From a virus (taxonomy: Duplodnaviria; Heunggongvirae; Uroviricota; Caudoviricetes): a stretch of 64,000 nt of DNA. The DNA lies in the IMG/VR virus record IMGVR_UViG_2681813318_000003; one strand, 5' to 3'. Positions 11,101 to 54,400 of the stretch are shown one piece after another; position 1 is the stretch's first letter; every line of letters starts with the position of its first letter. The notes under the pieces were generated by a model. It saw only the letters and a program-made list of their open reading frames with translations. It was not told the origin of the DNA and did not search any database. Both the position numbers and the translations under genes were made by a program.

Positions 11101-11146
11101 ACGACTATGAAATATGACTGCGGCACGTGCCGCAGTCAGTTTGCAT

Positions 11147-11359
11147 TTAGTGTATTTTCTTTAACAGACCCCAAAGTGTTCCGGCTTTTGTAGTCAGTTT
11201 TCCTGTTTCTGGATCGTACATACGCCATTCACGCCGCTGGTGGACGATATACCCATCTTCACGTTCCAGACGCTCAAGAATGCCAGGCTGCTTGAAACCC
11301 TTAGCACGCCAGTAGCCGCTTGTTTTCTCGATTTCCAGACCTGCCAGTGTTAATGCCAT
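11147..11359 (-). CDS. hypothetical protein
   Basis: 70 aa ORF abutting the next gene upstream. Confidence 0.45.
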   Translation of the reverse strand: MALTLAGLEIEKTSGYWRAKGFKQPGILERLEREDGYIVHQRREWRMYDPETGKLTTKAGTLWGLLKKIH

Positions 11360-11694
11360 TATCCAACCTCCTTGCAGTCATCGAAAAGGTAGCTTTGCTG
11401 AGAAGCGTGAACGCCATAGAAGCCCTTGTATTTGTTGTATACGAAGTGGTCTTCTCCGACGCCGGTTAATTTGCCATTACGGTTTGTGAGATATGGGGAT
11501 GACAATACTCGATCGTCACGCACTACATAGAACTGGTCGCCGCTGTCTACGACCATCGCGCCATATGGTGCTTTTATGACGTCGGTAAAAGCGCCATTCT
11601 TAATGTCGGCTACAGACATTTCACACTGATAAACAGTGGTGTCGGCCACAACGATCGAAGAAAGGAACAACAAAGCGAATGGGATGGCCTTCAT
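11359..11694 (-). CDS. hypothetical secreted protein
   Basis: 111 aa; N-terminal signal-peptide-like hydrophobic segment (MKAIPFALLFLSSIVVA). Confidence 0.55.
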   Translation of the reverse strand: MKAIPFALLFLSSIVVADTTVYQCEMSVADIKNGAFTDVIKAPYGAMVVDSGDQFYVVRDDRVLSSPYLTNRNGKLTGVGEDHFVYNKYKGFYGVHASQQSYLFDDCKEVG

Positions 11695-11870
11695 GCTGCC
11701 ACCTCTTTGATTACATCAAATGCTGAATTAAATACGAGCACGATAGCCAAAGCGTTTATGACTACTTCGTTCACCGGGGAAAATACTTTACGAATGACAC
11801 CAGTGAAAATGCAGTCGATGACAAAAGCTATTGACACGATGAGTAACAAGTATTCAATAAAAATCTTCAT
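11691..11870 (-). CDS. small hydrophobic membrane protein (59 aa)
   Basis: Manual translation MKIFIEYLLLIVSIAFVIDCIF...; stop overlaps the downstream start (ATGA coupling); below the track length cutoff. Confidence 0.4.
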   Translation of the reverse strand: MKIFIEYLLLIVSIAFVIDCIFTGVIRKVFSPVNEVVINALAIVLVFNSAFDVIKEVAA

Positions 11871-11909
11871 GATAGGTAGATACTAACTTATATAAATTTT
11901 ACTGTAAAC

Positions 11910-12185
11910 TCACTCAAAAGTGCTGATGCTTAAAATACGCTCAAGATGTGCGGCATCTTCATCACTGATTTGTTGAGTCTCTTCTACGTACCAACAGTTG
12001 CCGTTATGCCAACAAACACCATCATCATCAACCATCACTGAATCAGCGTCATGACCTGTATATTCAACGAGAATGTGCTGGATCAGCGCGTCAGTTTCTT
12101 CGTCGTTAAGGCCATCGGCTTTGACCATAAAAAGCGGAAACACGTCATAGACAGTGCTGGTAACGATTCGAACTAAAACTCTCAT
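11910..12185 (-). CDS. hypothetical acidic protein
   Basis: 91 aa, Asp/Glu-rich; conserved RBS-start motif at 12183-12205. Confidence 0.55.
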   Translation of the reverse strand: MRVLVRIVTSTVYDVFPLFMVKADGLNDEETDALIQHILVEYTGHDADSVMVDDDGVCWHNGNCWYVEETQQISDEDAAHLERILSISTFE

Positions 12186-12240
12186 GTGTTTTTCCTTTTG
12201 TGGTTAGTGTTTACTTATTTTGTTAGTTATGAATAGGCGA

Positions 12241-12666
12241 TCAATCTTCTTGTTTAGGGAAAAACTGTTCAATAACTCTGTCAACGGCTGTGTCTATATG
12301 GAGTAGATGCCACACAACCATATCTTTGCTTCCCATGCCTTGTGTGAATATCACGTCATACTTACGCCATGCGCAGTGGAACCAATATGCTGAGTCATCA
12401 ATTGGTAAATCCTCTCCCGCCTCTTTGAAGTATTTCAGCAGCATTGCCTGCTCTGCCGTTGGCGTTGGACCTATTTCCTGAGCGTACATACGGATGAATC
12501 GCTGCCAGTCTGTCTCGTCGGGGGTTGGATCTGGTGGGGTCATTTCTGCGATAGCGTTTCGTAGCTGATGCGCCCAATCAGGTTCAGGAAAGCCTTTTGC
12601 TACTTCATCATCAATAACATCCAGAGCCACGTTTGCGGCATCGTAGAGTTTCTTAATAGCTGTCAT
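12241..12666 (-). CDS. hypothetical acidic protein
   Basis: 141 aa; preceded by AAACAA-N-TTGTTT palindrome and AAGGA RBS. Confidence 0.55.
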   Translation of the reverse strand: MTAIKKLYDAANVALDVIDDEVAKGFPEPDWAHQLRNAIAEMTPPDPTPDETDWQRFIRMYAQEIGPTPTAEQAMLLKYFKEAGEDLPIDDSAYWFHCAWRKYDVIFTQGMGSKDMVVWHLLHIDTAVDRVIEQFFPKQED

Positions 12667-12715
12667 GTTTTCTTATCCTTTTAAACAAATTGTTTTCTTA
12701 ATAAGATAATTGCGA

Positions 12716-12741
12716 TAAAAAAGGCGTCCAACTGGACGCCT
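12716..12741 (-). terminator. rho-independent terminator (GGCGTCC/GGACGCC hairpin)
   Basis: Stem 12723-12729 / 12734-12740, loop AACT; T-run on the minus strand (A-run 12716-12722 on plus); follows stop of the SPFH gene. Confidence 0.7.
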
Positions 12742-12757
12742 GAACTTTTTAGGGGAG

Positions 12758-13588
12758 TTATTTCACTGTAATGAAAGGAGTGTTAGCCCCTTGAGTCATG
12801 TACTGCGGTAACTGGCCATTCCATTTATTGATGGCTTCCAGTTCCATAACGTTCGGGTTTTGACGCAGAGCTTCACCGCGCAGACGAATGGCGTCTGCTT
12901 CTGCTTGCGCACGAGCACGGATAGCATCAGCTTCACCATTAGCCTGTTCACGTAGCATATTCGCCTCAGCTTTACGTTGTTCAACTTCCTGCTGACGTTG
13001 CAGAGTACGCTGGTTAGCCGTTACTTTGGCGTTAATAGATTCAATGACAGTTTTTGGGTAATCAGGCTTTCCAACCCATGACAGGCTCAGTACCTCAATA
13101 CCAACCGGAGACATCTCTTTCTGAATATCTTTCAGTGCGTTGTCCAGCAATTGTGCCTTACCACCGTCGATAAATGAGTCAGTGGTCATACGGCTGGCCA
13201 AACGGTTTAGAGAGTCGGCAATTTTCTGACGCAGATCTGATTCGGTGATATCGTCTACGCCTTTGCGATAGGTCTGGAACACCGTCGTTACCTTGTCACG
13301 ATTAACCAGATACGCAACGCCAATTTTGTGACCAATAGCAGTACCGTCACTCATCTGGAATGTGAACGGCTCGTCGTAGGTCTTCATTTGTTTGAAGGTC
13401 GGGAATACGTAAAGTTCGGTGTTAAGACCTGTCCATTGGCGACCAACGCCAACCACTTCACCAATCCCTTTGTCTTCACCTAATTTGTTTACTTTGATGC
13501 CAACGTATCCAGGCTCCACGCGATCGCAGCCAGTAAGACCCATTGTGCAAATAGCCGCCAGAGCAACTGCAAGTAAACCTTTCTTCAT
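12758..13588 (-). CDS. SPFH/band-7 (prohibitin/HflC-like) domain lipoprotein
   Basis: 276 aa; lipobox LTGC after signal peptide; coiled-coil Ala/Glu/Arg-rich segment and C-terminal ...NVMELEAINKW... resembling HflK/HflC-type SPFH proteins (from memory). Confidence 0.55.
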   Translation of the reverse strand: MKKGLLAVALAAICTMGLTGCDRVEPGYVGIKVNKLGEDKGIGEVVGVGRQWTGLNTELYVFPTFKQMKTYDEPFTFQMSDGTAIGHKIGVAYLVNRDKVTTVFQTYRKGVDDITESDLRQKIADSLNRLASRMTTDSFIDGGKAQLLDNALKDIQKEMSPVGIEVLSLSWVGKPDYPKTVIESINAKVTANQRTLQRQQEVEQRKAEANMLREQANGEADAIRARAQAEADAIRLRGEALRQNPNVMELEAINKWNGQLPQYMTQGANTPFITVK

Positions 13589-35767: not shown

Positions 35768-35999
35768 GTTGGCTTCCCTTTATTTATATTTATTGCAGGT
35801 ATTAGTTAATCAAAACACGAGCAGTGCCACAATAATTAAATGGCGTACTATTTCTTATGGTTATTAGTTTCCCGGTAACTTTACCGACCATAAACTAAAT
35901 CAACAAAGCTGACATATTAACTAAATTTAAGTACCCTTTTCGCACACTTGACGCTTGCCGCGTCTAAACTGTTCATCCTATATCAACAGAACAAAAAAT

Positions 36000-37145
36000 A
36001 TGAAATACATAAAATCTTCATCGTTGCTGGCATTAACTTTGCTTTTTAGCTCTGGATTCGTTAACGCAGACAATAAACAAACGCTGATAGAAGCCGCTAA
36101 CGCAGGGAATACCGCAGCACAAAGTGAGTTAGGGACAAATTATTTTGATGGTATCAATGGTTTTGATAAGGATGTAGTTGAGGCCAAGAAGTGGATTGAT
36201 CTAGCTGCAGAAAAGGGAGATAAAGTAGCATATTATGCACTTGGAGTTATGTACACATTTGGCGAGGGTGTAGATAAAGACCTAAATAAAGCTGTTGAGT
36301 ACTACAAACTTGCGGGGGACGCTCGTGAAGGTAGAGCCTACAACAATCTTGGTGCTATTTATCAAAAGGGGATGCTTGGTAAAGTAGATCATGCACTCGC
36401 CATTAAATACTTCAAACTAGCCTCTGATGCCGGGTATGTTAAAGCAACTTCAGTTCTTGGGGCGTATTACCAATATGGTGAAGGCGTTCAAAAGAATTAT
36501 AAAAAGGCTTTTGCTTATTACAAAAAAGCGGCGGATCAAGGTAGTTCAGATGGTATGTTCGCATTAGGCACCTTATACGATGATGGTTTAGGTGTTAAAC
36601 GAAACGATGCCGAAGCAATTAAGTGGTATAAAAAAGCTGCTGAACTCGGAAACGTCGATGCCATGACAAATCTTGGCATTATGTATGAGAATGGCGAGGG
36701 TGTTAAAAAGGATTATAAAAAAGCAGCCGATTTTTATCAGGCCGCTTGCGATAAAGGAGATAAAAGCGGCTGTAAATACATTGCAGAACTGAAAGAAAGC
36801 GGCAAATATCGAGCGCCGGCTTCCAAAGCCAAAACAAAATCCGCCACCCAGCGACTTATTGCTAAATCCATTGATAAGGGCGTTAACGCTACATTTACCT
36901 GGCAGGGTGATGATGCTACCTTCACCGCTAATGATGGCAAAGTTGACTGCACCTTCCTGAAGGATTTTTCAGAGAAAGGAGGCAATCTGGCTACCTCGTT
37001 TGTTTGCACCGATAACGTTCAAATCATCCTGAAGCAATTCAGAGATACCAAAAATGCCTACCTCGCGGTAATGACTGACAACTTCAATACTGAAGTTAAA
37101 TCATTTTCGGTCAATGTGTATGTGACTAATACTGGTTCAAACTAA
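36000..37145 (+). CDS. Sel1-like repeat (SLR/TPR-like) secreted protein
   Basis: Signal peptide MKYIKSSSLLALTLLFSSGFVNA; about six Sel1-type repeats (A..WY.KAA..G...A...LG.MY..GEGV.KD). Start set at ATG 36000 rather than track start 35955. Confidence 0.65.
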   Translation: MKYIKSSSLLALTLLFSSGFVNADNKQTLIEAANAGNTAAQSELGTNYFDGINGFDKDVVEAKKWIDLAAEKGDKVAYYALGVMYTFGEGVDKDLNKAVEYYKLAGDAREGRAYNNLGAIYQKGMLGKVDHALAIKYFKLASDAGYVKATSVLGAYYQYGEGVQKNYKKAFAYYKKAADQGSSDGMFALGTLYDDGLGVKRNDAEAIKWYKKAAELGNVDAMTNLGIMYENGEGVKKDYKKAADFYQAACDKGDKSGCKYIAELKESGKYRAPASKAKTKSATQRLIAKSIDKGVNATFTWQGDDATFTANDGKVDCTFLKDFSEKGGNLATSFVCTDNVQIILKQFRDTKNAYLAVMTDNFNTEVKSFSVNVYVTNTGSN

Positions 37146-38399: not shown

Positions 38400-39740
38400 T
38401 TAGGTAACGTCTAAGATCCGCTCAATGAAGCGCATTTGTTCGAGGTTTTGTTTAACACGAATGCTGATCCCTCCCTGCTGGTTACGTGAACCAGCAAAGT
38501 AGAGACGAGCCTCTCCTTTCGCTTCTTCTTCTTCGGTTTTGTTGATCGTTATTACCAGGTCAGCAATACGTACTTTTTCGATGTTGTCGGCGGCGTGCAT
38601 CATTGTGGCAACTTCTGACGCGCCACCTTCACGGTTTGTCTGCGATGCCGTGATTCCAGCAACGTTATGTTTGTCATAAAGAGCACGTAAATCGGTGTAG
38701 ATACTACGAATGTTGGCGCGATCATCACGAAGGTCATAACTGGCACGCATCAAATCTGCGTAGTCGACAACAAGCATGTCAGGCACCATGCCATTGGCTT
38801 TCATACTGTTAAGCATACGGTCCAGATCTGCCGGTGACATACTTCCTGACGGACGCTCAACCACCCACAAACTACCAATCCCCTTCGTGGCTCCCAACTC
38901 TGCCAACTTACGATGAACCTCATCGCGCCGTTCCACCAGCTTGGACATTTCTGTCTCCGACAATCTTGCATCAAAACGGTCGGATAAAATGGTGGTGTGA
39001 ACCTCCAGCGAAAGATACAGAACATTGTAGCCAGCAAGCGTTGCATTTATGGAAAATTCACCCATTGCGGTCGATTTACCGGATTTAGCGAACCCCATGA
39101 AGAGCACCATTTCACGCTTCGCCCAGCCTTTTTGGTACAGCAACCTATCGAGCAGAGGGAGTCCAGTTGTAATGCTGTTTGGCACATACTCCTCTGAAGC
39201 CTCATATTCACGCGCTTTCAATCGCTCACTTGCGGAGGTGTAGTAGTCATAGATTCCGGTCGCTTCGTTCGATCCAATCTGCTGAACCTTGGCCATGATT
39301 GCCATCGCCCCCTGAAAGTCGCCTTTCTCTTTCAGTTCAGCAGCCTTAATCAGAGCATCATCAAACGCTACACTTTTTGCGAAGGTTGATACCTGGTCAA
39401 CCATGTACGAGGTATCGGACAATTTTTCTGCAAGAATGCGCTTAAACGCAGCAACAACATCGGCGAATAGTTCCTCACGGATAGTCTTATCGCGTTTCGC
39501 ACGCTTAAGCATATCCAGAATTGCAGATGAAGAGGGCGCGCTCTTGTACATACGGTAATAGCCCGAAACCATATTAACCAATATGGCATTGGCCGCATTG
39601 GCAAATTGGCTAGGCACAACCAGATCTCCCGCACGAGTAAGAAACTCGTGATCACGACAAAAATATGCCGTCAGTCTGTTCTGGAAATCTTCATCAAACT
39701 CTTCGGACAGCCCGCGTCCTGTATGGCAAAGTTCTGTCAT
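38400..39740 (-). CDS. DnaB-like replicative DNA helicase
   Basis: 446 aa; Walker A GFAKSGKST, Walker B LVVDYADL, SQTNR arginine-finger region typical of the DnaB/RecA-fold helicase family. Confidence 0.8.
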   Translation of the reverse strand: MTELCHTGRGLSEEFDEDFQNRLTAYFCRDHEFLTRAGDLVVPSQFANAANAILVNMVSGYYRMYKSAPSSSAILDMLKRAKRDKTIREELFADVVAAFKRILAEKLSDTSYMVDQVSTFAKSVAFDDALIKAAELKEKGDFQGAMAIMAKVQQIGSNEATGIYDYYTSASERLKAREYEASEEYVPNSITTGLPLLDRLLYQKGWAKREMVLFMGFAKSGKSTAMGEFSINATLAGYNVLYLSLEVHTTILSDRFDARLSETEMSKLVERRDEVHRKLAELGATKGIGSLWVVERPSGSMSPADLDRMLNSMKANGMVPDMLVVDYADLMRASYDLRDDRANIRSIYTDLRALYDKHNVAGITASQTNREGGASEVATMMHAADNIEKVRIADLVITINKTEEEEAKGEARLYFAGSRNQQGGISIRVKQNLEQMRFIERILDVT

Positions 39741-39783
39741 GTGCTTTCCTTTGTTTTTTAAACAAATTGTTTTCTAGTATTAG

Positions 39784-40533
39784 TTAATTAGATAGGGGAT
39801 CAATAAACCGCCGTGCTTCTTCCAGTTCTTCTGGAAAGTGGGCGGAAATAAGGCGCTCTGGAACGATTTCCATTAGCCAGATAGCGGAGAAAATTGCGCG
39901 TATGCGCTTGCTGCGAGGGATGGTGCGCAAACGCTCCAGAATCCACTCAAAATAGCTTTCCTGAATCGGGTTGAACTGCATGTCTCCCATATGCTTAAAG
40001 CTAACAAGAGAGTCATCCAGACGGGTTGTTGCGCGTCTGGCTAATTTCTCTTCGAATATCTCAACCAGCTCTGGCTGCCACAAATGCTGTGGGCGCGGCA
40101 GCTTGTCCCACAGCCGTCGTGCAGCTGCGGAAAGAACGGTGGAGATAAAGTAGTCGTATGAGCAGCAATAGCGGTCAGCAAACTGGCGTGCTTTCCATAG
40201 AGACGTTTTATTGGCAGTCGACAACTCCTGATAAGGCAGGCGTTTTAACCCGGTGGTGAACGGAGCTGTTTCAAAGTGTTCGCGACCGTGCGTCAGCATG
40301 ATATTTGAGTACTGACGTTTGTATGCCTCCGTAAACAGACAGGTGGCCATAAGAGGATGCATGTCTCGGTAATCAAACCACTTCGTCTCGAAGAGTTCAG
40401 CCTCGTCTTTACAGCGCGACAAACCAATGTTTTCAGCGACCCACTTGTCCATAACAGCGGTATTCCACTCTGTCATGAAGTCGTACTGGTCGTTGTCGAT
40501 GGTATCGAAAAAGATTTGGCTCATGTGGCTCAC
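39784..40533 (-). CDS. hypothetical protein
   Basis: 249 aa ORF upstream of the helicase (possibly a helicase loader by position only). Confidence 0.55.
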   Translation of the reverse strand: MSHMSQIFFDTIDNDQYDFMTEWNTAVMDKWVAENIGLSRCKDEAELFETKWFDYRDMHPLMATCLFTEAYKRQYSNIMLTHGREHFETAPFTTGLKRLPYQELSTANKTSLWKARQFADRYCCSYDYFISTVLSAAARRLWDKLPRPQHLWQPELVEIFEEKLARRATTRLDDSLVSFKHMGDMQFNPIQESYFEWILERLRTIPRSKRIRAIFSAIWLMEIVPERLISAHFPEELEEARRFIDPLSN

Positions 40534-40798
40534 CTGGTAGGTAGTTACTTACTTATCACAATGGACGGATGATAGCGACTGGTGTCAGTTTTTGGAAGTG
40601 AAAACGGAAGGGAGTTGTTCTGGTGGTGTCTTTTAAAAGACCTGCTTCCGTATATATTTAATAAGTTACTTATTATTTATATACAGAAACAGGCTCCTAA
40701 TGGATACCAAGAACAACATAATTTGACTCCAACTCCAGATGCTATGTCATTGACAGATTTATCAAGGGAGATCATGTTAGAATTAGTGTTTTAGCCTC

Positions 40799-41872
40799 GT
40801 GGATATTGTCACCATGCGCATGAATAGACTTCCAGGATATGGCCTTCCCGAACTGGCTTTTTGGCCTCAGCCTAAATATGAACGGAATAAATGGTCGATG
40901 TTCTGTCTGAAACTCCGTAATGATGGAACCCTTGCTTGGTATCGGCGATATGTTGATCGTGGTATGCCAAACCACGCTGTTGATGACGACTACGATAACT
41001 ATCCTGAAGCAAGAAAAGCGGCATTAGAGCTGAATAAAAACGTGAGCTTTGACATTGAAAAACTTCCTCTATCTATGTTTCAAAAGAAGTCATTGCGTTT
41101 GAAAGTTGACAAAGCACTCAAAGCCAAATCACGTCTCATGGATGAAGAGTATATAATGCTCAACGAAGCAATTAAGGCACACGCCAACGATCCGCGAGTG
41201 ACATTAAATGAGTTAATAATTAACCCAGATTACGAAACTTTGCGTCAACCCCTTTTTGACGTGCTAAGCGAGATGCCTTACTTACATTTTGTTTTTCTTC
41301 CCAAATTCCAAGTTTCACTTCAACTCGTTGCTCCTAACACTTGGGAATGTTCATATAACAACAAAGCTAAGACAGCGAAGATCTGCTACCAAGAACGCAT
41401 AGCCAGAGGTTTTGGTTTATCAGGTGCTGCACATTGGGGAAAAACAAAAGCGACTATTCGCTCAATGCTGCTGCCGCGTGCTAACCGGTTACTGCAACTC
41501 GCCAGCGTAAAAAGAATGCTGGATGAAGCTCTCAGGAATGGGCAAAAGGTACTGGTTGTTGGCAACTTTGTTTTCTGGTTTGAGGACAAAAATCAGGTAG
41601 GTTGGAGTGTTAAAGTTGCTAGCGAAAGCGAAACCACCTCAAGAGGCAATACGCTCTGGAAAGAAGGAACTATCATTTCAAAAAATCACGGTCGAATTGT
41701 CGTGCTGCCGTATACAAAAGAAAACGGTAAACATGTAAAAGGTTATACCAAGAATGCCCCTAACGACGGCAATGCAATTCCGAGACATAAGGATGAGTAT
41801 GTTGAGTTGCCCTTTGAAATTTTGGATGGTGACTTGATGTTCAGTCTGTTCGGTGAGCTTAACTACGAATAG
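40799..41872 (+). CDS. hypothetical protein (plus-strand orphan)
   Basis: 357 aa ORF convergent with the partition operon; start uncertain (GTG 40799 or ATG 40814/40820; no clear RBS). Confidence 0.5.
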   Translation: MDIVTMRMNRLPGYGLPELAFWPQPKYERNKWSMFCLKLRNDGTLAWYRRYVDRGMPNHAVDDDYDNYPEARKAALELNKNVSFDIEKLPLSMFQKKSLRLKVDKALKAKSRLMDEEYIMLNEAIKAHANDPRVTLNELIINPDYETLRQPLFDVLSEMPYLHFVFLPKFQVSLQLVAPNTWECSYNNKAKTAKICYQERIARGFGLSGAAHWGKTKATIRSMLLPRANRLLQLASVKRMLDEALRNGQKVLVVGNFVFWFEDKNQVGWSVKVASESETTSRGNTLWKEGTIISKNHGRIVVLPYTKENGKHVKGYTKNAPNDGNAIPRHKDEYVELPFEILDGDLMFSLFGELNYE

Positions 41873-41932
41873 CTTTCATAGAACGAAATATTTCTAAGGC
41901 TGTCCAATGCAGACCAGCCTTAGAGATTTATA

Positions 41933-42292
41933 TCAACCTTTCTTCATTAACTCGCGTTTAATTTCATCGGTACGCATCGTGACATCGGCAGCAGTGATCG
42001 CCTCGTTAAGCTTCACGATGTCCTCGATTTCCTGCGGTGACTTCTCTGCCAGATGGAAAATGGCTGCTCGAATCACGTCAGAACGAGTGAACTTCTCGAA
42101 GCGAGGGATGAACTTCATCATCTCCAGCAGTTCGAAGTATTCGTCTTCCAGTGACATTGTGCGGCTTTTAATTTTCTCTTTGCCACGAGTCGGGCGTCCC
42201 TGTGGTCTGACTGGTTGGCGCAAAGGAGTTGTGTTCTTAGCCGGTGCATCAGGCTCTTTGCGCTTTGCTAGGTCACCCATTTTCATGGACAT
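41933..42292 (-). CDS. small partition protein, candidate centromere-binding protein (ParG/ParB-like)
   Basis: 119 aa; basic flexible N-terminus (KRKEPDAPAKNTTPLRQPVRPQGRPTRGKEK) and helical C-terminal domain; immediately downstream of and coupled to parA. Confidence 0.5.
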   Translation of the reverse strand: MSMKMGDLAKRKEPDAPAKNTTPLRQPVRPQGRPTRGKEKIKSRTMSLEDEYFELLEMMKFIPRFEKFTRSDVIRAAIFHLAEKSPQEIEDIVKLNEAITAADVTMRTDEIKRELMKKG

Positions 42293-42960
42293 TATTCTTC
42301 TTCCTCCAGACTCAACAGATAATCTACAAATTCTTCAAACTCGGCTTCCGCCTTTTTGTCGCGCTCGCTACCGGTCATTTCAAAGATAGAACGACCAGAC
42401 TCTTCCGCATCATCATAGACGTTGCGGTTATATAGATTGACTGGCGCAGACTCGATGCCAAACGTCTCAACAATCTCTTTAGCCGCCAGAATGCGAGACA
42501 CTTGTGATGGCAAAGCCGGGCACTGGTTCATGACCGCGCGGACCTTCACTTTATCGTTTACATTACGAACATTGTCGATAATAGGATCAATGTCACGCAG
42601 AGATTTCAAATCACGACGCTTAGGACGAAGCGGGATAATGATAACGTCGGCCATCAGCATCGCTTGTCGCTGAATTTCGGAGTCAAAGCCACCAGCATCT
42701 ACCACTACAAACTCAGCTCTACCCTGAAGCGATTTTAGGTGCTTAATGATGTCATCCTGAACGTATGCAAAAGGAATCAGCTCAAGGTCTTCGTTCTGTC
42801 GACGGTCTTCACACCAGCTTGTTGTCGTGCGCTGAATATCTATATCAGTGATATAAACCTTCTTCTTCTTTTTGACTTTCAGGCAAACGGCAATTTGCTG
42901 GGCAACGGTGGATTTGCCAGGCCCGCCCTTTGTGCCGCCAACCACAAAGATCTTGGTCAT
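42292..42960 (-). CDS. parA: ParA/ParF-family partition ATPase
   Basis: 222 aa; deviant Walker A GGTKGGPGKST at N-terminus and ParA-like core. Confidence 0.8.
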   Translation of the reverse strand: MTKIFVVGGTKGGPGKSTVAQQIAVCLKVKKKKKVYITDIDIQRTTTSWCEDRRQNEDLELIPFAYVQDDIIKHLKSLQGRAEFVVVDAGGFDSEIQRQAMLMADVIIIPLRPKRRDLKSLRDIDPIIDNVRNVNDKVKVRAVMNQCPALPSQVSRILAAKEIVETFGIESAPVNLYNRNVYDDAEESGRSIFEMTGSERDKKAEAEFEEFVDYLLSLEEEE

Positions 42961-43086
42961 TGGAGAGTTCCCTTTGCGTATATAATTATCGTCTGAAACA
43001 ACTTGTTTTCTTATATGTGATATAGCCTAAATGCCTACGGCTGCGGTGTAAAGGTTTAATGATAGGTACATAGGTGGGCTTAATAA

Positions 43087-43112
43087 CAAAAAACCCGCCG
43101 TAGCGGGTTTAT
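43087..43112 (-). terminator. rho-independent terminator (CCCGC CGTA GCGGG flanked by A6/T-run)
   Basis: Stem 43094-43098 / 43103-43107; reads as hairpin plus T6 on the minus strand immediately after the stop at 43109; also T-rich on the plus side. Confidence 0.7.
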
Positions 43113-43882
43113 TGATTCATAGATCGTTTACTCAGAATGTTCACTATATGAGTACAAGCACCTGGGGTGAGATTGATTTTATTAGTCCCCCACTCTTCAC
43201 GTCTTCGCATCTGGCCTCCGTCAGACTTACCGATATCCCACGGAATAAAACCACTTACGCCACAGGCATCCTCACCCAATTCCTCTATAAAATTTTCGTT
43301 CTTCGTATCGTAAATTTCGACCAGTCCATGTTTGCGCATACTCACAGCCCAAAGAGTTGCGCCTTTTATCGTCTGTAACGTATCGCAAACCAAGTATTGA
43401 TACTTATCTACGAGATAAAGGTAAGCAAAACTTGCGATGCCTAATCCCATATAATCAGCATGAGTAAAAACCCCTCTAATCTGCTTGGCGCTGACTTTTA
43501 CTCCAGATTTATCCTTGATTGGAAACTCGCAGTAGGCCACGCGGAAGACTGTTTGGACTGGCTGCCCCACATGCAACTTGTAGGATTCAATTTCTGCTCC
43601 TATCTCAAGAGGTGTGTAACCAGCACGTTTGAGTCGCTTAACTTCCTGCTCTTGGTAATCAGGATCACATGACTCAAGACACTCGCCAACAATACAGCGT
43701 TCATAGGCCGAATCAACAAGCTCGTATTCGGTAAATCGAATTAGATCGAAACCTCGGGAGATAAAATAGAACTCACCGAGAGCGATAATTCTCGTCGCTC
43801 TCGGCATTTCAGACAAGACCTTGCTGTAGTCTTCTATTTCAGGGATTAATCTGTTCGCCTGACCAATTAGAGATGGTGCCAT
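43109..43882 (-). CDS. hypothetical protein
   Basis: 257 aa ORF between lysis and partition modules. Confidence 0.55.
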   Translation of the reverse strand: MAPSLIGQANRLIPEIEDYSKVLSEMPRATRIIALGEFYFISRGFDLIRFTEYELVDSAYERCIVGECLESCDPDYQEQEVKRLKRAGYTPLEIGAEIESYKLHVGQPVQTVFRVAYCEFPIKDKSGVKVSAKQIRGVFTHADYMGLGIASFAYLYLVDKYQYLVCDTLQTIKGATLWAVSMRKHGLVEIYDTKNENFIEELGEDACGVSGFIPWDIGKSDGGQMRRREEWGTNKINLTPGACTHIVNILSKRSMNQ

Positions 43883-44286
43883 GAAGTATTCTGTGCCGTT
43901 GATGGTTCCATATCATCGATTTTACAGAATTTCTTCATAAAAGACTCTACAACTTGTTTGATTCGTGAAGAAATATCACGATCTAAACACTTCAAGTCAG
44001 GATATTGTTCAGCAACATCTAAAACAAAAGAGGTTCGTTTACCGTTAGCGACAACCTCGGCCAACGGTTTAACCAGTGACGTAGAATTAGAGACCTTTTC
44101 GGCACGCGCCACATCGCTCTTAAAAGTGACGATGAAGTGCTGGCGGTTAGCTGATTCACGGCACAACATACGTCGCACTTCTACTGCGTCTTCACTGTTG
44201 TGAATACGCATAGGAAAGCTGTCGATAACCGCAGTATTGGTGCGGATCGTCTGCATAGAACGCGTATTGTCATGATAATTTAGCAT
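43867..44286 (-). CDS. hypothetical protein
   Basis: 139 aa ORF overlapping the downstream gene start. Confidence 0.5.
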   Translation of the reverse strand: MLNYHDNTRSMQTIRTNTAVIDSFPMRIHNSEDAVEVRRMLCRESANRQHFIVTFKSDVARAEKVSNSTSLVKPLAEVVANGKRTSFVLDVAEQYPDLKCLDRDISSRIKQVVESFMKKFCKIDDMEPSTAQNTSWHHL

Positions 44287-44495
44287 ATATCCACCTTAGC
44301 CGTTAACACAAGTGTCATTGCGGCACCCCTCTCGGGGTTGAAGGCTACGAGAATGCGTAGCCTGTATGTGCCCACTTACGTGGATGCCTAATAAATCTAC
44401 ATCAAATTACTAAATGATTCAACATGAGCTTGAGTGAACAGGCGTGTATATGAGTGAAGATGCCATCTTTAGGATAAAAGGTAAACTGAGATCAA

Positions 44496-44741
44496 TCATC
44501 GACTCAGTTCAGGTGCCCCCCACTCACACAGCCTTTCACCTATCGTATTGTGGATAAGCAACTGTCGCTCCGTTTCCTCAGTCATAAAATCCTCTCTACT
44601 CACATAGATAGGATTTGCAGCATCGCAGAATAGCACGCCTGGAGCCTGCGTCTTAATCACGCACCCATTTATCAAACAGCTCGCGATGAACACCAGAGGC
44701 ATCTTTTTGCCGCACTTCATTAACCGTTTCATTTTTGACAT
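44496..44741 (-). CDS. outer-membrane spanin (o-spanin lipoprotein), overlapped with i-spanin
   Basis: Out-of-frame ORF starting inside the i-spanin gene; lipoprotein signal with lipobox (MKRLMKCGKKMPLVFIASC / LINGC). Exact start ambiguous (44702-44741). Confidence 0.5.
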   Translation of the reverse strand: MSKMKRLMKCGKKMPLVFIASCLINGCVIKTQAPGVLFCDAANPIYVSREDFMTEETERQLLIHNTIGERLCEWGAPELSR

Positions 44742-47180: not shown

Positions 47181-50100
47181 TTATTCTTTAGGTGAATTTA
47201 ACTTCGTTTCAAGCTCCTCAACCCTTTTGGTCAATTGCTGAATATGATGAATGAGTGGTACAACCAAACGCTCATACATCACCCCTTCAGCGACCATACC
47301 ATTTGAGGAAATATCTTCTGGAGAATCATTATTTGTTGGTTCACGCCAATGGACATATTGCGGGGCAATCTCACCTACCTCTTCAGCAATAAGGCCGTAA
47401 TACCCCCAATCCTTTCGGTCACCTCGACAAATTGAACGATACCAAACAGGTCTTAATGACAAAAGTTCATCAGCATATCGATCTTGTAATGTTTCAATAT
47501 CCTTTTTATAGCGCCTTGAAGATGTTGAACGCCAAACTGTATTGATACCTGGGTTTGGATCAATGTACATATTGGCACCGCTAGTAGTTGTGCCAATATC
47601 CCATATAGCAAACCCTCCACTACCGCCTGATTTGACAACCAGTGTTTCAGCAATAATATCCAGGTTGCCACTATAGCCTGTCAGTGATGATCTGCTTGCA
47701 TAGGAACTTAGAAGGTTTGTTACCTCTGTTTTCGTGTAAGCATTAAGGTTAGCCGCAGTCAAAGTAATATCGGCAGAGCCATCAAACGCCACACCAGCAA
47801 TTTTCCTTGCTGTCTGCAATTTTGTGGCTGTTGCGGCATTACCAGTAGTATTCTGATTACCGGTTGTATTCACACCAGGGATTGAATCCTTAGCAGTATA
47901 TACCTGCGCCCACGCTGACCATGCCGCATCTGTGGTATCTCTTCGTGAGCGAATGAAAACTGGCGCATGTGCACCGCTCGTACCACTCCAGCCAATAAGC
48001 AACTCGCCCTCACCAGCAGCACTCGCACCTTTCATGTGCAATACGTTGCCATACGTGGTCGGATAGCTATTGTTGTACGCCTCGTACATTTGAATGCCAG
48101 CAGTGCCTTGAGTAGAGCCGCTTAATGCCGTAACTCGGCCACGAGATACCAGTGTATTAATGTTGATATCGCCTGAGCCATCAAACTTAACACCATTGAT
48201 GTTTCTCGCTGTTTGCAACTTCGTAGCTGTTGAAGCATTACCGTTCAAACTACCATTTACGCCACCAGTCACATTTAGTCCATTACCAATTGATACCGCA
48301 CCGCTGGTATTATTAATTGTAATAGGTCGCAAACCGTTCCATGAACCTAATGTGTCTCCTGATGCTGTTAGCATGAAATATGTGTTCGATCCATCATTAC
48401 GGATAAAGAACCCAAAGCTACCGTAAGCAATGCGGAAACCATTTGCATATTTTGAAATGATCTCACCAGAAGACGTTAATCCGCCAGTTAACGCTCCTCC
48501 AGATAGTGGTAAAGCTCCGACATCAGCCGCAGTAGGCTTGTTTTTAGTGTTATACGCTCTGCGCCATCCTGGTGAATAGCTCGTCCCGTTAAATACATAG
48601 ATAAACTCCGCATTAGTGAGAGCACCAGAGACACTCGTCGTTGTGGCCGTTGTTATACGGATCGTATAATTGTTTGAGCTACTACCGTTATTAAATACCT
48701 CTATAACAGCTCCTGCTAATGGAATAACGCCACAACCAGTTTCACTATTTGGTATGGTTGCACTATTGGCATAGGCCCACGCACATCGAGCAATCCATGA
48801 CTTTGTGTTAAATGCTCCATTATTTTGCAATAACGTCACTAACTGTGCTGTTGTTATTGCTCCGCCATTACTTCCTGTAGTTAACCAACCAGTAGGAGAT
48901 GCCGGGCAACCTATATTTGCTGGCGACAAGGAAATATTTGCCGAGCCGTCAAACGACACCCCATTGATAGTACGCGCAGTCTGCAACTTCGTAGCAGTAG
49001 CCGCGTTGCCCGTTGTATTCTGATTACCAGTCGTATTAACACCTGGCAAATTAATATTCGCAGTACCATCAAAGCTCACGCCGCCGATAGTTCTTGCCGT
49101 CTGAAGTTTTGTAGCAGTTGCAGCATTACCAGTGGTGTTCTGATTACCCGTAGTATTTACACCTGGAAGGTTGATATTTGCAGAACCGTCGAAACCAACT
49201 CCACCGATAGATCTTGCCGTCTGCAATTTCGTTGCTGTACTTGCATTACCATTTAATGTTCCGGTGATCCCACCAGTAACAGACAACGGACCTGAAACTG
49301 TTCCTCCGGTTGTTGGCAGTGCTCCAATATCTAACGGCGTCGGTTTCTGATGTGTGCTATACATCGTATAAACAACACCATCGGTAACGCTGGAAGGCTT
49401 ACTAGCTGAATATGTTGGCGATGTATAAATAGAAACTGTCGCATTTGCAGTACAATCCCAATGGATATTTACACGAGTCGCATAATTGCCAATCTCAACG
49501 TAAATATCATATGTATCGCCGGATGTGTTGATCCAGGCGAAATTCGTTAATCCGACAGCTGTACGCTTCCACAAAGCACCTGTAATCCCTTTGGGGTTTC
49601 CATTGCCTGCTCGTAGAACCAGTTCTGAAATGCCTGCCTGATGTGGGGAGCCGACGTTGTAACCAGCGCCACCAATCAATGCGATGTAAACGATGGAACT
49701 CGCTTGTGGCATTGTAACAGTAGCCAGTTTGAACCACCCGGCCCCGCCAGAGAAAGACATCGTTATTGAATTTAAAGTACCAATATCTTTCGGCGTTAAT
49801 GTGATATCCGCAGTCAGTGCTTTCCCGTTAATTTTTCGGTTAGATGGCACCCTGCTGTTCGCATTGTCATTGACTACTTTAACTGCTTTTGGCGTTGCGG
49901 CCAGCGATTCACTGGTGCTGTCGACAGCACTGCTAAGTTTCACAACACCTTTAGTTGTAAGGCTTGCGTCTTCCATCGCAACTGCACCGGCAATCTCTTC
50001 AGCACGATCAGCAGCAGCTTCCGCACGGGTCGCAGCGGATTCAGCAGCAGTTTTGCTCTGAGATGCTGCCGTCGCACTGCCTGCCGCCTCTGTTGCTTTC

Positions 50101-51338
50101 GTGGATGCCGTCGTGGCGCTGCCCTTCGCTGCTGACGCCTGTCTGGTCGCCTCATCTTTTGAAGCAGACGCAGATGATGCCGATGACGCTGCCGAACTGG
50201 CGGATGATGCGGCTGCCGTTTTTGAGGATTCTGCACGGGTTTCCGACGCTTTCGCGTTCGTTTCGGATGTCTTCGCTGCGGAAGCAGACCTCGCTGCTGC
50301 GCTGGCCTGTTCAGTGGCTTCGCCAGCCTTCGTTGTGGCTGTTGAAGCAGACGATGCGGCACTTTCTGCCGATTTTCCGGCGGCGGTGGCACTGGCTGAG
50401 GCCTGCCCGGCACTTGTTGACGCGGCACTGGCAGACGACGCAGCCGCTGTTTTTGAGCCTGCCGCAGCCGAGGCGCTCTGTCCCGCTGCCGTTTCAGAAG
50501 ACCTGGCGTTCGTCTCGGACGTTTTTGCCGCCTTCGCGGAATTTCCTGCCGCCGTTGCCGAGGAAGCGGCATTACTGGCGCTCGAGGCTGCGCTCGTTTC
50601 TGATGATTTCGCTGCCTCTTTTGAGGCCGCCGCATCCCGGGCTGAGGTGGCAGCTTCTGACGCCTTCGTGGTCGCGGTGGATGCAGAAGTGGCTGCAGAT
50701 TTTTGTGACGCTGCAGCATTCGTTTCAGACGTTTTCGCGGCACCGGCACTGGTGGCCGCCGCGCTTTTTGAGGACTCTGCAGCGGATGCACTTTGAGACG
50801 CTTGAGAGGCTTTTTCTCCAGCGGTATTGGCGCTTTCTGCTGCTGCGGCAGCACTGGCCGCCGCCTCACGAGCTTTGTCGCCAGCAGCATCAATCGCGTC
50901 AGTGTTATTTTTATACCACTCAACGTTTTCGTTGTGCTCGTTGACGATCTGCATTAGCGGCTTAACGGTCACTTCTGTACCGTCTTCACGCTCGATTGTC
51001 ACCTCATCCAGAGCAGTCAACCAACTGCGCATGGACTTGGAATCAGCCGACATACGCGACATTAGTGCTGTAAAGCGCGCGCTAAACTGTGTTAAGTCGC
51101 CTTCATAGGTCGTAATGATTCGGCACGGAACTTCAGACTGAGTTTCGCCGGTATAGGGTTCTGAGAGAACAATGTTCGTATCACTGGTTACGCGCTTGAT
51201 CTCATACAGCTTATTGTCGGGGCCAATGACGATCATCCCCGGCAACACACCATTAGCTGTTACGTTCCAGGCTGTCCCTGCCCCAACCAGAGTATTGCTG
51301 CCCTGTGTAAATGTGATAGTACCTTCCCTGTACCACAT
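47181..51338 (-). CDS. long tail fibre protein with Ala/Ser-rich low-complexity region, tandem repeats and C-terminal peptidase S74 intramolecular chaperone domain
   Basis: 1385 aa; about 330 aa Ala/Ser-rich region; repeated NINLPGVNTTGNQNTTGNAATATKLQTAR units; C-terminal STSSRRYKKDI...YGLIAEEV motif typical of self-cleaving S74 chaperone domains (T5 pb1 / endosialidase type). Confidence 0.8.
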   Translation of the reverse strand: MWYREGTITFTQGSNTLVGAGTAWNVTANGVLPGMIVIGPDNKLYEIKRVTSDTNIVLSEPYTGETQSEVPCRIITTYEGDLTQFSARFTALMSRMSADSKSMRSWLTALDEVTIEREDGTEVTVKPLMQIVNEHNENVEWYKNNTDAIDAAGDKAREAAASAAAAAESANTAGEKASQASQSASAAESSKSAAATSAGAAKTSETNAAASQKSAATSASTATTKASEAATSARDAAASKEAAKSSETSAASSASNAASSATAAGNSAKAAKTSETNARSSETAAGQSASAAAGSKTAAASSASAASTSAGQASASATAAGKSAESAASSASTATTKAGEATEQASAAARSASAAKTSETNAKASETRAESSKTAAASSASSAASSASSASASKDEATRQASAAKGSATTASTKATEAAGSATAASQSKTAAESAATRAEAAADRAEEIAGAVAMEDASLTTKGVVKLSSAVDSTSESLAATPKAVKVVNDNANSRVPSNRKINGKALTADITLTPKDIGTLNSITMSFSGGAGWFKLATVTMPQASSIVYIALIGGAGYNVGSPHQAGISELVLRAGNGNPKGITGALWKRTAVGLTNFAWINTSGDTYDIYVEIGNYATRVNIHWDCTANATVSIYTSPTYSASKPSSVTDGVVYTMYSTHQKPTPLDIGALPTTGGTVSGPLSVTGGITGTLNGNASTATKLQTARSIGGVGFDGSANINLPGVNTTGNQNTTGNAATATKLQTARTIGGVSFDGTANINLPGVNTTGNQNTTGNAATATKLQTARTINGVSFDGSANISLSPANIGCPASPTGWLTTGSNGGAITTAQLVTLLQNNGAFNTKSWIARCAWAYANSATIPNSETGCGVIPLAGAVIEVFNNGSSSNNYTIRITTATTTSVSGALTNAEFIYVFNGTSYSPGWRRAYNTKNKPTAADVGALPLSGGALTGGLTSSGEIISKYANGFRIAYGSFGFFIRNDGSNTYFMLTASGDTLGSWNGLRPITINNTSGAVSIGNGLNVTGGVNGSLNGNASTATKLQTARNINGVKFDGSGDININTLVSRGRVTALSGSTQGTAGIQMYEAYNNSYPTTYGNVLHMKGASAAGEGELLIGWSGTSGAHAPVFIRSRRDTTDAAWSAWAQVYTAKDSIPGVNTTGNQNTTGNAATATKLQTARKIAGVAFDGSADITLTAANLNAYTKTEVTNLLSSYASRSSLTGYSGNLDIIAETLVVKSGGSGGFAIWDIGTTTSGANMYIDPNPGINTVWRSTSSRRYKKDIETLQDRYADELLSLRPVWYRSICRGDRKDWGYYGLIAEEVGEIAPQYVHWREPTNNDSPEDISSNGMVAEGVMYERLVVPLIHHIQQLTKRVEELETKLNSPKE

Positions 51339-51430: not shown

Positions 51431-54400
51431 TTACAGAAGGCCAATTCTTACTCGTAGGACGTTGTTATCGTCATAAACGTCAATCCGCTGACCATTTATG
51501 ACCAGTCGCCCATTACCCCCGCTATTACCGTTGATCTCAAGCGTTCCATTTTTGCCGAACCGCCATCCAGATCTACCGCTAACAAAATTGGTAGATTGCA
51601 GATCGCCTACTTTTGCATTGGTGATTGTGCCATCCTTGATATACGCACCATTCATATAGGCGATACTGTTTTCGATAACAAATGGCGTGGTGATCTTCCC
51701 GTTAACAGAGTTGACCAAACCAAACCTGTCAGCCTGCACCAAAAACTGAGAAAGGCCAGTGGTGTCGATACCAAGCGCAATACCAGCAACATACTTCTGC
51801 CCTCCGCTCGTTGAAGTTTCCATTTTCAACGTCCACGCGGTTGACACTTTTTTGTTGGTATCAGCAATAGCTGTTGCCTGCTGTTGAATTGTCGCGGTAT
51901 TTCCATCCACCTCTGCTTTCAGAGTATCGATTCGCCCACTCAGAGCATTATCTGCCTGCGTTCTCGCTGTCGTTTCAGTTGTTACCGCCGCGGAAATGTT
52001 GGCTGCCGTTTGAGACTCTAAGTTTGTGATTTGAGTCGCCAATGCAGCATCTTGCTCTGTACGCGTTTTCGTTTCGGTTGCTACAGCCGCTTTAATATCC
52101 TCTTTGTATTGAGAGGTCAGCTTGGTGATCTGAGACGACAACGCCGAGTCAGCATCAGTTCGAGCCTGCGTTTCAACTGCAACGGCCGCACTAATATCTT
52201 TCGCTGTCTGTGCTTTTAAACTTGAAACCTCTTTTGTTAAAGCGGTATCACCATCAGCACGAGCCGTTGTTTCTCTGGCAAGAGATGCCTCGAGATCATT
52301 AGCTTTTGCTGTAAGAGACGAAATCTGAGTGGACAATGCACTATCGGCATCAGTCCTTGCCTTTGTCTCTACAGCAACCGCTGCGGCAATATCAGTTCCG
52401 GTTTGTGCTCGCAGGCTGTTAATTTCTCGTGAGAGCGCCTGGTCAGCACTTGCTCTGGCCTCCTGCTCCTGAGTGATGGCAGCGGATATATCACCGTCAA
52501 CCTTTGACTGAAGCTGGTTTATTTGTTTGGCTAACGCAGAGTCCCCGCTTGCTCGGGCCTCCTGCTCACTACGTATTGCAGCAGAAATATCATCATCAAC
52601 CTTTGCCTGAAGTTGGGTGATCTGGCTTGCCAGAGCCGAATCTTCCGTTGCTCGGGCTTCTTGCTCTTCCTTAATAGCTGCGACGATATCGTTGCTTACT
52701 TTCGACTCAAGCTGAGTGATCTGTGTCGTCAGAGCTTCATCGGCAGATGTGCGAGCCTCCTGCTCTGTACTAATCGCCGCGCTGATATCTCCTTCAAACT
52801 TAGATTGCAGCTGAGTGACACGCTTTGCCAACGCTTCATCGCCATCGGCACGAGCGGTGGACTCTTCCAGAATACTGGCCTTAATGTCTTCGCCAATTTC
52901 TACGCGAATTTCCTCAACCTTCGTGGCCATTGCAGACATATCATCAGCAAAGGTTTTCTGTGTTGTTGCGATCTTCGCGTTATTGACCATCTGCTTGTGC
53001 TGGTCTTCATCTTGACGAAGAGCCAGGTCAATATTTGTTTTGGCTAACGCCTCAATGTTCGTAGTCAGTTCTGCACTGGCACGATCGACCTCTGCAACCG
53101 TCTTTTTCATTTCTTCAACGGCAGCGGAGCTTTCCTCTACCGTTGACTGCAACACTTCCAGTTGTTTAGCGTTTGCAGCATCGCCTTCAACACGAGCCTC
53201 GCTTTCCTTAGCAATAAGAGCCGCAGCTTCATCTCTTGCAGCCTTTATTGCCTCGACTGTATTAGCGAGAGCTTTATCGTGTTCAGATACGGTGTTTTCG
53301 ATTTCAACAATTGCAGCATCAGTGGCATCAATTTTTTCAAACGCTTCATTGACCTTGTCGATCGTTGCCGAAACCTCACCTTTAAGCTCGGTTTGTGCGT
53401 TCTCCAAAGCATCGCTACGCTCGTTGAATTTTATTTCAAAACCCGCGAGGTTATCGCTGAACTGCTTATCTAATTCAGCTATATCTTCCTTAACGTCGTT
53501 TACCGACCCCTCCAAAGATTCGACGCTCTGGTTGATATGCTCATTTAACTCGTCAACTGCTTCTTGAGAGGCTTTGCTGTTGATGTCCTCAAGCAGAGCC
53601 TGACCAAGCTCGGAAGATGTAATTTTGCCAGCCAGGAACGACAGTACATCGCGAGTTGTCGCCTCTGTACCCAAGTTTGAGTTCGGAGGGCTTAACATAC
53701 CTCGCTTGTTCGATGCTCGAACCCAGTAATACCACGTTTCGCTATCCCCAAGACCAGCATGTGTAAAGGTGGTGCTTGCAGACTCTGCGATCAGTTTCGC
53801 CGTATCCAGATTGTTGGTCTGGGATGCGTAAACATTAATGTGATCAAGGTCTACCGAATCTGGATTAACCCAATTCAGTATCACATTACGATAGTCTCCA
53901 ACGGCCGTTAATGACGTTGGGGCATCCGGCGGTGTCATTGTGCCCAACACCTGATAAACGGTACTGATAATCTCTGTTTTTTTACCGTTGAATGAAACCG
54001 CATACAGTTGGAAGTCGTAGCGTCCATTCTCCGCGACATTAACGATTTCGTATTGCTCTTCGGTTACACGCGCCGATTGCCAGTTCGATACATTGTTTTC
54101 ATCAGAACGTCGCCAACTGATCCAATACTCTGGAGATTTTCCTTCCCATGTTGCAGTCAGTTTTACTGACAGGTTGCCCGGGCTTGAGAGATAAGTCCCT
54201 TCAGTGATTTGCAGATTAGATGGCTTGGAGTAAGTTGGGTCCAATACCGTCGTATTCTGCGGGATCAGCGTTGCACCATTGTCGATTGCCTCATATTTAG
54301 ACGGATTGTTCTCAACAGCGGTGATGTCAAAGCTACCCGGCGTTTCCCCCTGCGCGATGTTAACGATGCGAACGCGCATAGGTTCGAGATCTGGTTCTGT

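Follow-up and report, generated by a model that had tools for sequence, protein, structure and literature searches.

The window analysed here is the 64,000-nucleotide (nt) stretch of the IMG/VR virus record IMGVR_UViG_2681813318_000003 (Caudoviricetes), and it is an SSU5-like phage-plasmid of Shigella sonnei/Escherichia coli. The region at 40534-41932 was found to carry an orphan gene on the plus strand which, as an earlier note on this DNA had recorded, is convergent with the partition operon, and which is described here as the cargo of an exchangeable accessory cassette that probably encodes an anti-phage protein. This region is 99.9% identical to sequences of ~108-kb S. sonnei plasmids and 99.2-99.6% identical to those of many E. 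coli plasmids, and the 3.1 kb around the gene matches Salmonella phage SSU5, the Escherichia phages PhiR41_1, Cyrano and CMS-2020a, and Klebsiella phages. The open reading frames (ORFs) around the orphan gene include those for a primase, a DnaB-like helicase, a PHROG 2500 protein, a short ParA with its small partner, lysis proteins and a tail fibre. No paper on the orphan gene or the slot it occupies was found by literature search. In the E. coli plasmid NZ_CP047004.1 the match to 40534-41932 is in two pieces (H22 and H64), and an IS1 family transposase is annotated under it.

The frame of the 357-aa ORF reported earlier (GTG start, 40799..41872, plus strand) is real, but its start is more likely the ATG at 40814, since residue 6 of the longer ORF is where PHROG 22329 and all of the homologues start, and the coding sequence is thus taken as 40814..41872 (plus strand, 352 aa). 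The weak start context noted before was confirmed, with no Shine-Dalgarno sequence ahead of either the GTG or the ATG. The upstream region 40534-40813 is AT-rich, again as described, with 37.5% GC compared with 46.2% for the window, and the cassette coding sequence has 42.6% GC compared with 47-50% for the flanking genes. A putative extended -10 promoter element, TGtTAGAAT (40775..40783, plus strand), would give a 5' untranslated region of ~24 nt; the motif TGnTA(A/G)AAT is conserved, with unchanged spacing to the ATG, in the phage-plasmid copies of the gene from Klebsiella and Salmonella and in chromosomal copies from Enterobacter and Pantoea.

Pairwise comparison revealed that homology to PhiR41_1, Cyrano and SSU5 ends at ~40694-40704 and restarts at 41930-41935, the right border being the stop codon of the parB-like gene of the partition operon. 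On the left the slot is flanked by a backbone gene of PHROG 2500 (39784..40533, minus strand), which heads the helicase-primase module. The accessory cassette (40695..41932, plus strand), comprising promoter, gene and terminator, fills the space between these two genes. Klebsiella phage p4727 is collinear with the window across the whole cassette (79%), and the allele of the window was present in 138 of the 731 PLSDB plasmids matching the backbone and in 37 of the 255 E. coli genomes with the backbone.

Other occupants of the slot are diverse. In PhiR41_1 it holds a 255-aa gene on the same strand as the orphan gene, identified as PD-T4-3 (PADLOC, 1.6e-23) and encoding a GIY-YIG domain, while in Cyrano the gene is one of 267 aa that runs in the opposite direction, and SSU5 has three genes. 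The candidate defence family PDC-S31 (DUF2971) was found in the slots of Cyrano, SSU5 (SSU5_037) and an Enterobacter hormaechei plasmid (PADLOC, 3e-41 and 2e-33). Klebsiella pneumoniae plasmids carry a 587-aa gene or, alternatively, two small genes, K. pneumoniae pF138_1 carries a PDC-S49 P-loop NTPase gene (PADLOC, 6.5e-24), and pairs of uncharacterised genes also occur among the slot alleles. The pHCM2-like Salmonella plasmid CP090231.1 (L079, 2306-4186) has the family gene together with a convergent DUF2971/PDC-S31 gene, which shows that cassettes can stack in the slot. These comparisons show 40695-41932 to be an apparently autonomous one-gene cassette with bounded ends, lodged at a hypervariable position of an SSU5-like phage-plasmid.

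The cassette ends in a hairpin, and the 9 bp inverted repeat described earlier between the stops of the orphan and parB-like genes is indeed present (CTAAGGCTG at 41894-41902 and CAGCCTTAG at 41915-41923). Its arms reach 13 nt with 92% complementarity (41890-41902 and 41915-41927), the loop is 12 nt, or 7 nt with a bulged extension, and the fold at 41890..41927 has an energy of -18.5 kcal/mol (z -3.4), equalled by one of 200 shuffles. The orphan stop codon is at 41870-41872 and the parB-like stop codon at 41933-41935, and the stem begins 18 nt and 6 nt after them, respectively. The 3' flanks are U-rich but interrupted, with 4-5 U in 8 nt (UUAUAUCA on the plus strand, AUUUCGUU on the minus strand), and the hairpin was not called by a consensus terminator scan. 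It resembles the intrinsic terminators located between convergent genes in having a stable stem-loop shortly after both stops with U-rich sequence on both sides, and differs from them in its interrupted U-tracts, its long loop and its escape from the scan. No further copies of the hairpin or of repeats of the par region were found in the window.

Conservation of the stem follows the gene. Klebsiella p4727 has an identical stem with a different loop, and the corresponding sequence of the chromosomal copy in Enterobacter is GGCGGG/CCCGCC. The core stem of the pHCM2-like plasmid (CTAAGGCGG/CCGCCTTAG) displays a compensatory change of T:A to G:C and seven further complementary pairs, and its neighbour is the DUF2971 gene, not parB. 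The PD-T4-3 cassette of PhiR41_1 is closed at the corresponding position by a canonical GC hairpin of unrelated sequence, ATGCATTGGCGC...GCGCCAATGCAT, followed by TTTTT. Since the hairpin of the window moves with the gene, and the PhiR41_1 cassette ends in a terminator of its own, the hairpin is an element of the cargo gene that behaves like a terminator. Of the bidirectional terminator suggested before, the part that stood is therefore a terminator of the orphan gene, supported by this mobility, by the compensatory change and by the different neighbour in the pHCM2-like plasmid; we infer that 41890-41927 is the transcription terminator of the cassette, its efficiency being likewise presumed, and it is proposed that it also keeps the converging transcripts of cassette and parAB apart.

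The protein itself gave few clues. That it has no recognisable motif, as stated in the earlier note, was borne out by empty searches of Pfam (E ≤ 0.1), NCBIfam (E ≤ 1) and PADLOC (E ≤ 1), the sole profile match being PHROG 22329, 'unknown function'. Homologues numbered 346 at E ≤ 1e-3, every one annotated as hypothetical, and the full-length ones are nearly all ~350 aa long; among the 120 homologues listed, identity was 49-100%, and they came from Enterobacterales, Vibrio, Aeromonas, Shewanella, Pseudomonas and others. When 1.84 billion cluster representatives were searched exhaustively with a profile, only 142 were returned. The family is also spread over free-living marine and soil bacteria, with copies in chromosomal islands across the Gamma-, Beta- and Alphaproteobacteria. 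Some longer relatives have in common the C-terminal two-thirds, or no more than the last ~90 residues, after unrelated N-termini; none of the ten longer distant relatives tested had an informative Pfam (fusion) domain, and a profile search of a word-indexed database with the C-terminal module yielded fragments only. A Salmonella Typhi record contains an 84-aa fragment of the family protein (P0310).

The most conserved part is an all-beta module at residues 279-331 (41648..41806, plus strand), in which the pattern W-x2-G-x3-S-x-N-x-G-x5-P-x4-D-x5-G-x-T-x11-R is invariant or nearly so across the superfamily. Comparison of the gene of the window with its Klebsiella copy gave a ratio of nonsynonymous to synonymous substitution rates (dN/dS) of 0.155 over the whole length, which falls to 0.08 for the C-terminal third. 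Because dN/dS is as low as 0.155, substitution patterns show the protein to be real and evidently under strong purifying selection. It is predicted to be soluble and basic (isoelectric point, pI, 9.3), with a very basic helix at residues 206-243 (pI 11.8) and an acidic hydrophobic C-terminal tail; neither a transmembrane segment nor a signal peptide was predicted, and no nuclease or NTPase signature was recognised.

AlphaFold modelled the N-terminal two-thirds with confidence as beta-meander and helix units including two ~35-residue helices, and the C-terminal module, modelled alone with distant relatives, came out as all-beta with a predicted local distance difference test (pLDDT) score of about 90. 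Profile and structure searches, which the earlier note had proposed, returned no relative of known fold among PDB sequences and viral structures: the family profile had no significant match to PDB sequences, and neither model gave a Foldseek match to viral structures at E ≤ 0.001. A single-sequence PDB match to the designed lectin MITSUBA-1 (E 2e-4) was discarded as spurious, as the family profile did not reproduce it.

Among the homologues, the type of genomic location recurs. P2-like prophages carry the family gene at the tin/old locus, flanked by replication gene A and portal gene Q (L069, L107, L108 and L110). P4-like satellites have it with psu on one side and int on the other (L111, L112, L113, L115 and L118) or downstream of psu (L116, psu only); P4 itself has gop-beta-cII at the psu-int locus. 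A Salmonella homologue directly follows the integrase of a lambdoid prophage and has an LRR/NEL effector-type gene on its other side. The homologue in the tail module of a Pseudomonas brassicacearum prophage stands between an Aga/SMEK-like gene and a SLATT effector gene with two transmembrane segments, and in a Vibrio chromosomal island the homologue adjoins the Mokosh genes MkoA/MkoB.

Gabija genes (GajA/GajB) were located within 4 kb of the homologue in seven loci. For five of these the distance is only 41-113 nt, and both orders occur: GajB ends 41-59 nt before the family gene in three loci, and GajA starts 58-113 nt after it in two. Direct adjacency to Gabija was recorded for L025, L029, L036, L048 and L055 (Pseudomonas) and L061 (Brevundimonas), and may reflect either co-localisation in islands or a functional link. 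In seven Pseudomonas loci (L026, L031, L033, L034, L041, L053 and L057; ~10001-12950) a beta gene starts 135-255 nt after the family gene and is followed by a convergent cII-like gene, an arrangement that may represent a three-gene variant system.

The 148 nearest neighbours, none more than about 870 nt away, belong most often to the beta (7), GajA/OLD (6), UvrD (5) and integrase (5) families, these being raw counts; GNAT toxin genes also appear near homologues in viral contigs. Across the 54 genome loci no partner gene is conserved, the commonest neighbour cluster reaching 11 of 54, so the orphan gene is regarded as a stand-alone unit. The Pseudomonas homologue P0118 matched no PADLOC-DB v2.0.0 family at E ≤ 0.001. 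By gene order, the family is shown to occupy at least three independently recognised defence hotspots, frequently beside known systems.

Taken with the slot alternatives, which are known or candidate defence genes (PD-T4-3, PDC-S31 and PDC-S49), these contexts make it reasonably likely that the orphan gene is a defence gene. The closest parallel is PD-T4-3 of PhiR41_1, which occupies the same slot on the same strand, is convergent with parB, and is likewise a single gene with its own hairpin terminator just before the parB stop; it differs in encoding an unrelated, 255-aa GIY-YIG nuclease-like protein, whereas the protein of the window has neither a nuclease motif nor a PADLOC match. PD-T4-3 is said to have been described by Vassallo et al. 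in 2022 as a single-gene anti-T4 system, and is taken here in the form of its PADLOC model.

A second parallel is the cargo of the P2 tin/old and P4 psu-int hotspots, as exactly these loci harbour homologues of the window protein. Tin and Old act alone, as lysogenic-conversion genes by which other phages are excluded, and the window family is like them in its locus. With P4 Gop the likeness lies in the seven Pseudomonas loci, where the family gene takes the gop position upstream of a same-strand beta gene with cII convergent. Gop, at 133 aa, is nevertheless unrelated (hhalign probability 0.3%, E 0.18), the family gene and beta are separated by the 135-255 nt given above where the P4 genes overlap, and the window and most loci have neither beta nor cII. 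According to a study of P4 hotspots (PMC13586616), six of eight randomly chosen uncharacterised loci protected against phages.

A survey of SSU5 elements (bioRxiv 10.1101/2025.09.12.675607) describes the lineage as common in extensively drug-resistant S. sonnei and as having no detectable defence system: DefenseFinder 1.3.0 returned nothing in S. sonnei-type SSU5 elements, and PD-T4-3, PD-T7-5, PrrC or restriction systems in E. coli and Shigella relatives, so that this tool does not recognise the orphan gene family. The window is placed by inference in the S. sonnei clade of that survey, on the basis of its 99.9% identity to S. sonnei plasmids.

The explanation considered most probable for the locus as a whole, with somewhat better than even confidence, is therefore an accessory cassette encoding a single-protein anti-phage (superinfection-exclusion) factor. 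The cassette would be transcribed from its own extended -10 promoter, opposing the backbone operons, and transcription would stop at the hairpin at 41890-41927, which would also separate the cassette and parAB transcripts. The 352-aa protein would be made in the lysogenic plasmid state and would exclude other phages, protecting both the host and the phage-plasmid.

Its likeliest action would be stoichiometric binding of phage nucleic acid or of a replication or packaging protein, in the manner of P2 Tin, and not enzymatic DNA cleavage; binding is preferred over catalysis because the protein has no nuclease, NTPase or membrane features and combines a basic body with an acidic tail, although any specific binding mechanism is perhaps a doubtful proposition at this stage. 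More tentatively, at a little under even chance, the protein may be the founder of a new single-protein anti-phage family with a fold not seen before, an unrecognised defence cargo of SSU5-like phage-plasmids, those of drug-resistant S. sonnei with no reported defence system included, that is interchangeable with tin/old in P2-like phages and with gop-beta-cII in P4-like satellites, and that would bind through its invariant basic beta module and be auto-inhibited by its acidic tail.

Several observations weigh against this explanation. The proposed function is drawn from association and allelic position, and slots of this kind also host genes for anti-defence and further lysogenic-conversion functions. 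As the protein has no catalytic or sensor domain that could be named, its binding mechanism is a guess. Absence of the family from PADLOC v2, and of any DefenseFinder 1.3.0 system from S. sonnei-type elements (bioRxiv 10.1101/2025.09.12.675607), fits novelty and fits a non-defence function equally well. The full-length AlphaFold model is poor at the C-terminus, the most conserved third of the protein. As for the cassette boundaries, the U-tracts of the hairpin are imperfect and the terminator scan made no call, and no sigma-70-like promoter was found by consensus scan in 39700-44400.

Of the other functions considered, counter-defence comes first: the gene would encode an anti-immunity or other fitness factor of mobile elements, for example an inhibitor of host Gabija. 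All carriers of clear identity are mobile elements (the phage-plasmid, P2-like and lambdoid prophages, P4-like satellites), Gabija is repeatedly adjacent, and the protein has no recognisable effector domain. However, the family sits at the loci of validated defence genes (tin/old, psu-int and the PD-T4-3 slot) and, next to Mokosh, Gabija and beta-cII, in chromosomal islands whose flanks show no evident backbone of a mobile element, and inhibitors are, as a general rule, not usually encoded beside the system they inhibit in the same genome. Such a function is accordingly considered unlikely.

A lysogenic-conversion or addiction factor unrelated to phages, that is, a toxin-like or host-interaction protein, also appears quite improbable. 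It would agree with the position of the Salmonella copy between a prophage integrase and an LRR/NEL effector-type gene, with the GNAT toxin genes near homologues in viral contigs, and with the KacAT toxin-antitoxin pair in the second variable slot of Cyrano. Yet in the window there is no adjacent small antitoxin-like gene, no partner is conserved, the protein has neither signal peptide nor membrane segment, and the spread of the family in free-living marine and soil bacteria argues against a role in host virulence.

A trimeric fibre-like structural or adhesion protein with long helices and a foldon-like C-terminal string is rated as highly improbable. The two ~35-residue predicted helices, the failure of the full-protein monomer model in the C-terminal region and a gap-free alignment of GYTKNAPNDGNAIPRHKDEYVEL to the 27-residue T4 fibritin foldon (12 of 23 identities) would suit it. 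Against it, the foldon alignment is not significant (E = 1.6 in the PDB profile search) and no foldon-like fold was matched by the protein; the C-terminal module folded alone is modelled as a monomeric sheet; and the gene stands outside the structural operons with its own promoter and terminator and is present in non-phage islands.

The partition operon beyond the slot bears on the last of the rival explanations. It is a backbone operon on the minus strand consisting of a short ParA-type ATPase gene (42292..42960, 222 aa; Pfam MipZ, AAA_31 and CbiA; NCBIfam ParA_partition, 1.9e-33; PHROG 164) and a small parB-like partition gene overlapping it (41933..42292, 119 aa; PHROG 5111). Residues 54-79 of the parB-like protein weakly match aCcr1 (NCBIfam, E 2e-4, below cutoff), a family that we take to be of the ribbon-helix-helix type. 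That the hairpin is the centromere, or one centromere, bound by the small partition protein, with the orphan gene as a partition or maintenance accessory, would fit its place directly past the parB-like stop and the lack of a repeat array upstream of parA, noted before and upheld here by Tandem Repeats Finder and a repeat search, but is extremely improbable, since PhiR41_1 and Cyrano have a parA-parB region 97.7-98.5% identical to that of the window and yet unrelated sequence past the parB stop with no such hairpin, which therefore is not parS, in the pHCM2-like plasmid the hairpin follows the orphan gene with another gene between it and parB, family genes occur in chromosomes, prophages and satellites that have no par genes at all, and the hairpin is a single inverted repeat and not an array. 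The centromere-like site proposed earlier is thus dropped, and a cassette with its terminator, not a centromere, is very probably what lies between the replication module and parB.

A better candidate for the cis-site, though a candidate only, is a conserved non-coding stretch upstream of parA (42976..43050, minus strand), which may be a promoter, an operator or a centromere. Over these 75 nt, identity amounts to 88-93% in SSU5, Klebsiella p4727 and the pHCM2-like plasmid, compared with 77-83% for the parA coding sequence there, and they include a 13-bp palindrome, AAACAAGTTGTTT; no convincing repeat pattern and no array of short repeats was found in them. Short-ParA (type Ib) systems usually keep their operator or centromere upstream of parA. 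Type Ib systems combine a short ParA with a small ribbon-helix-helix ParB. The operon resembles two of them, ParF/ParG-parH of TP228 and par2 of pB171, in its 222-aa ParA lacking an N-terminal DNA-binding domain and in its 119-aa partner, and the location of 42976-43050 fits their operator/centromere position; the differences are that no array of short repeats is visible at 42976-43050 and that the hairpin at 41890-41927 lies outside the system. In itself, the question of hairpin or centromere is an ordinary one.

The left border of the slot, adjoining the replication module, is marked by a long AT-rich palindromic hairpin of ~100 nt (40615..40715), the core of which belongs to the backbone. 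Of the two TAAGTA..TACTTA palindromes reported earlier, one large palindrome is present as part of this hairpin, centred at 40667 (AATAAGT-T-ACTTATT, 26-nt arms, 85% complementary), while the second proved to be a direct repeat of AGTTACTTA at 40543; the literal TAAGTA does not occur in the upstream region 40534-40813. On the minus strand the hairpin has a fold energy of -43.8 kcal/mol (z -10.1) and is followed by TCTTTT. Its core, CCTGCTTCNGTATA...TATACNGAAGCAGG, is kept in all five SSU5-like genomes compared, with a variable centre, and in both the window and the Klebsiella phage the outer stem pairs the backbone with the first bases of the cassette, with different sequences in each. An Rfam scan of 39500-44500 produced only sub-threshold microRNA-like matches, on this large palindrome. 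The hairpin may serve to terminate or insulate transcription coming out of the slot, or it may be a structure related to an origin.

Some further observations concern the surrounding regions. The replication and partition region at 39700-44400 (4.7 kb) displays an apparent depletion of canonical promoters, with 0 sigma-70-like promoters compared with 7.4 ± 3.0 in dinucleotide shuffles. A second variable slot (43109-44286) on the other side of parAB holds genes of PHROG 3307 and PHROG 2594, with no PADLOC match, in the window, a KacAT-type toxin-antitoxin pair in Cyrano, and one plus-strand gene of ~185 aa in the Klebsiella and pHCM2-like plasmids. Just past the primase gene, a plus-strand ORF at 35955-37145 encodes a Sel1-like repeat protein with an apparent signal peptide, as judged from the translation only, and may be a further accessory gene of the phage-plasmid. 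Tandem repeats of ~2.2 copies with 76% matches were detected at 48991-49251 (120 nt), within the 1385-aa tail-fibre gene (47181-51338), and at 52449-52666 (99 nt), beyond that gene.

The slot is an exchange site in SSU5-like elements and can be mined for further systems, and the cassette of the window is compact and easily cloned. Its family is present in at least four kinds of mobile element, namely SSU5-like phage-plasmids, P2-like phages, P4-like satellites and lambdoid prophages, and also in chromosomal islands. If the protein is protective, it would enlarge the immune repertoire of bacteria by a new family of proteins and a new fold, and would give a function to a phage-plasmid lineage reported to be common in extensively drug-resistant S. 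sonnei and to lack detected defence systems.

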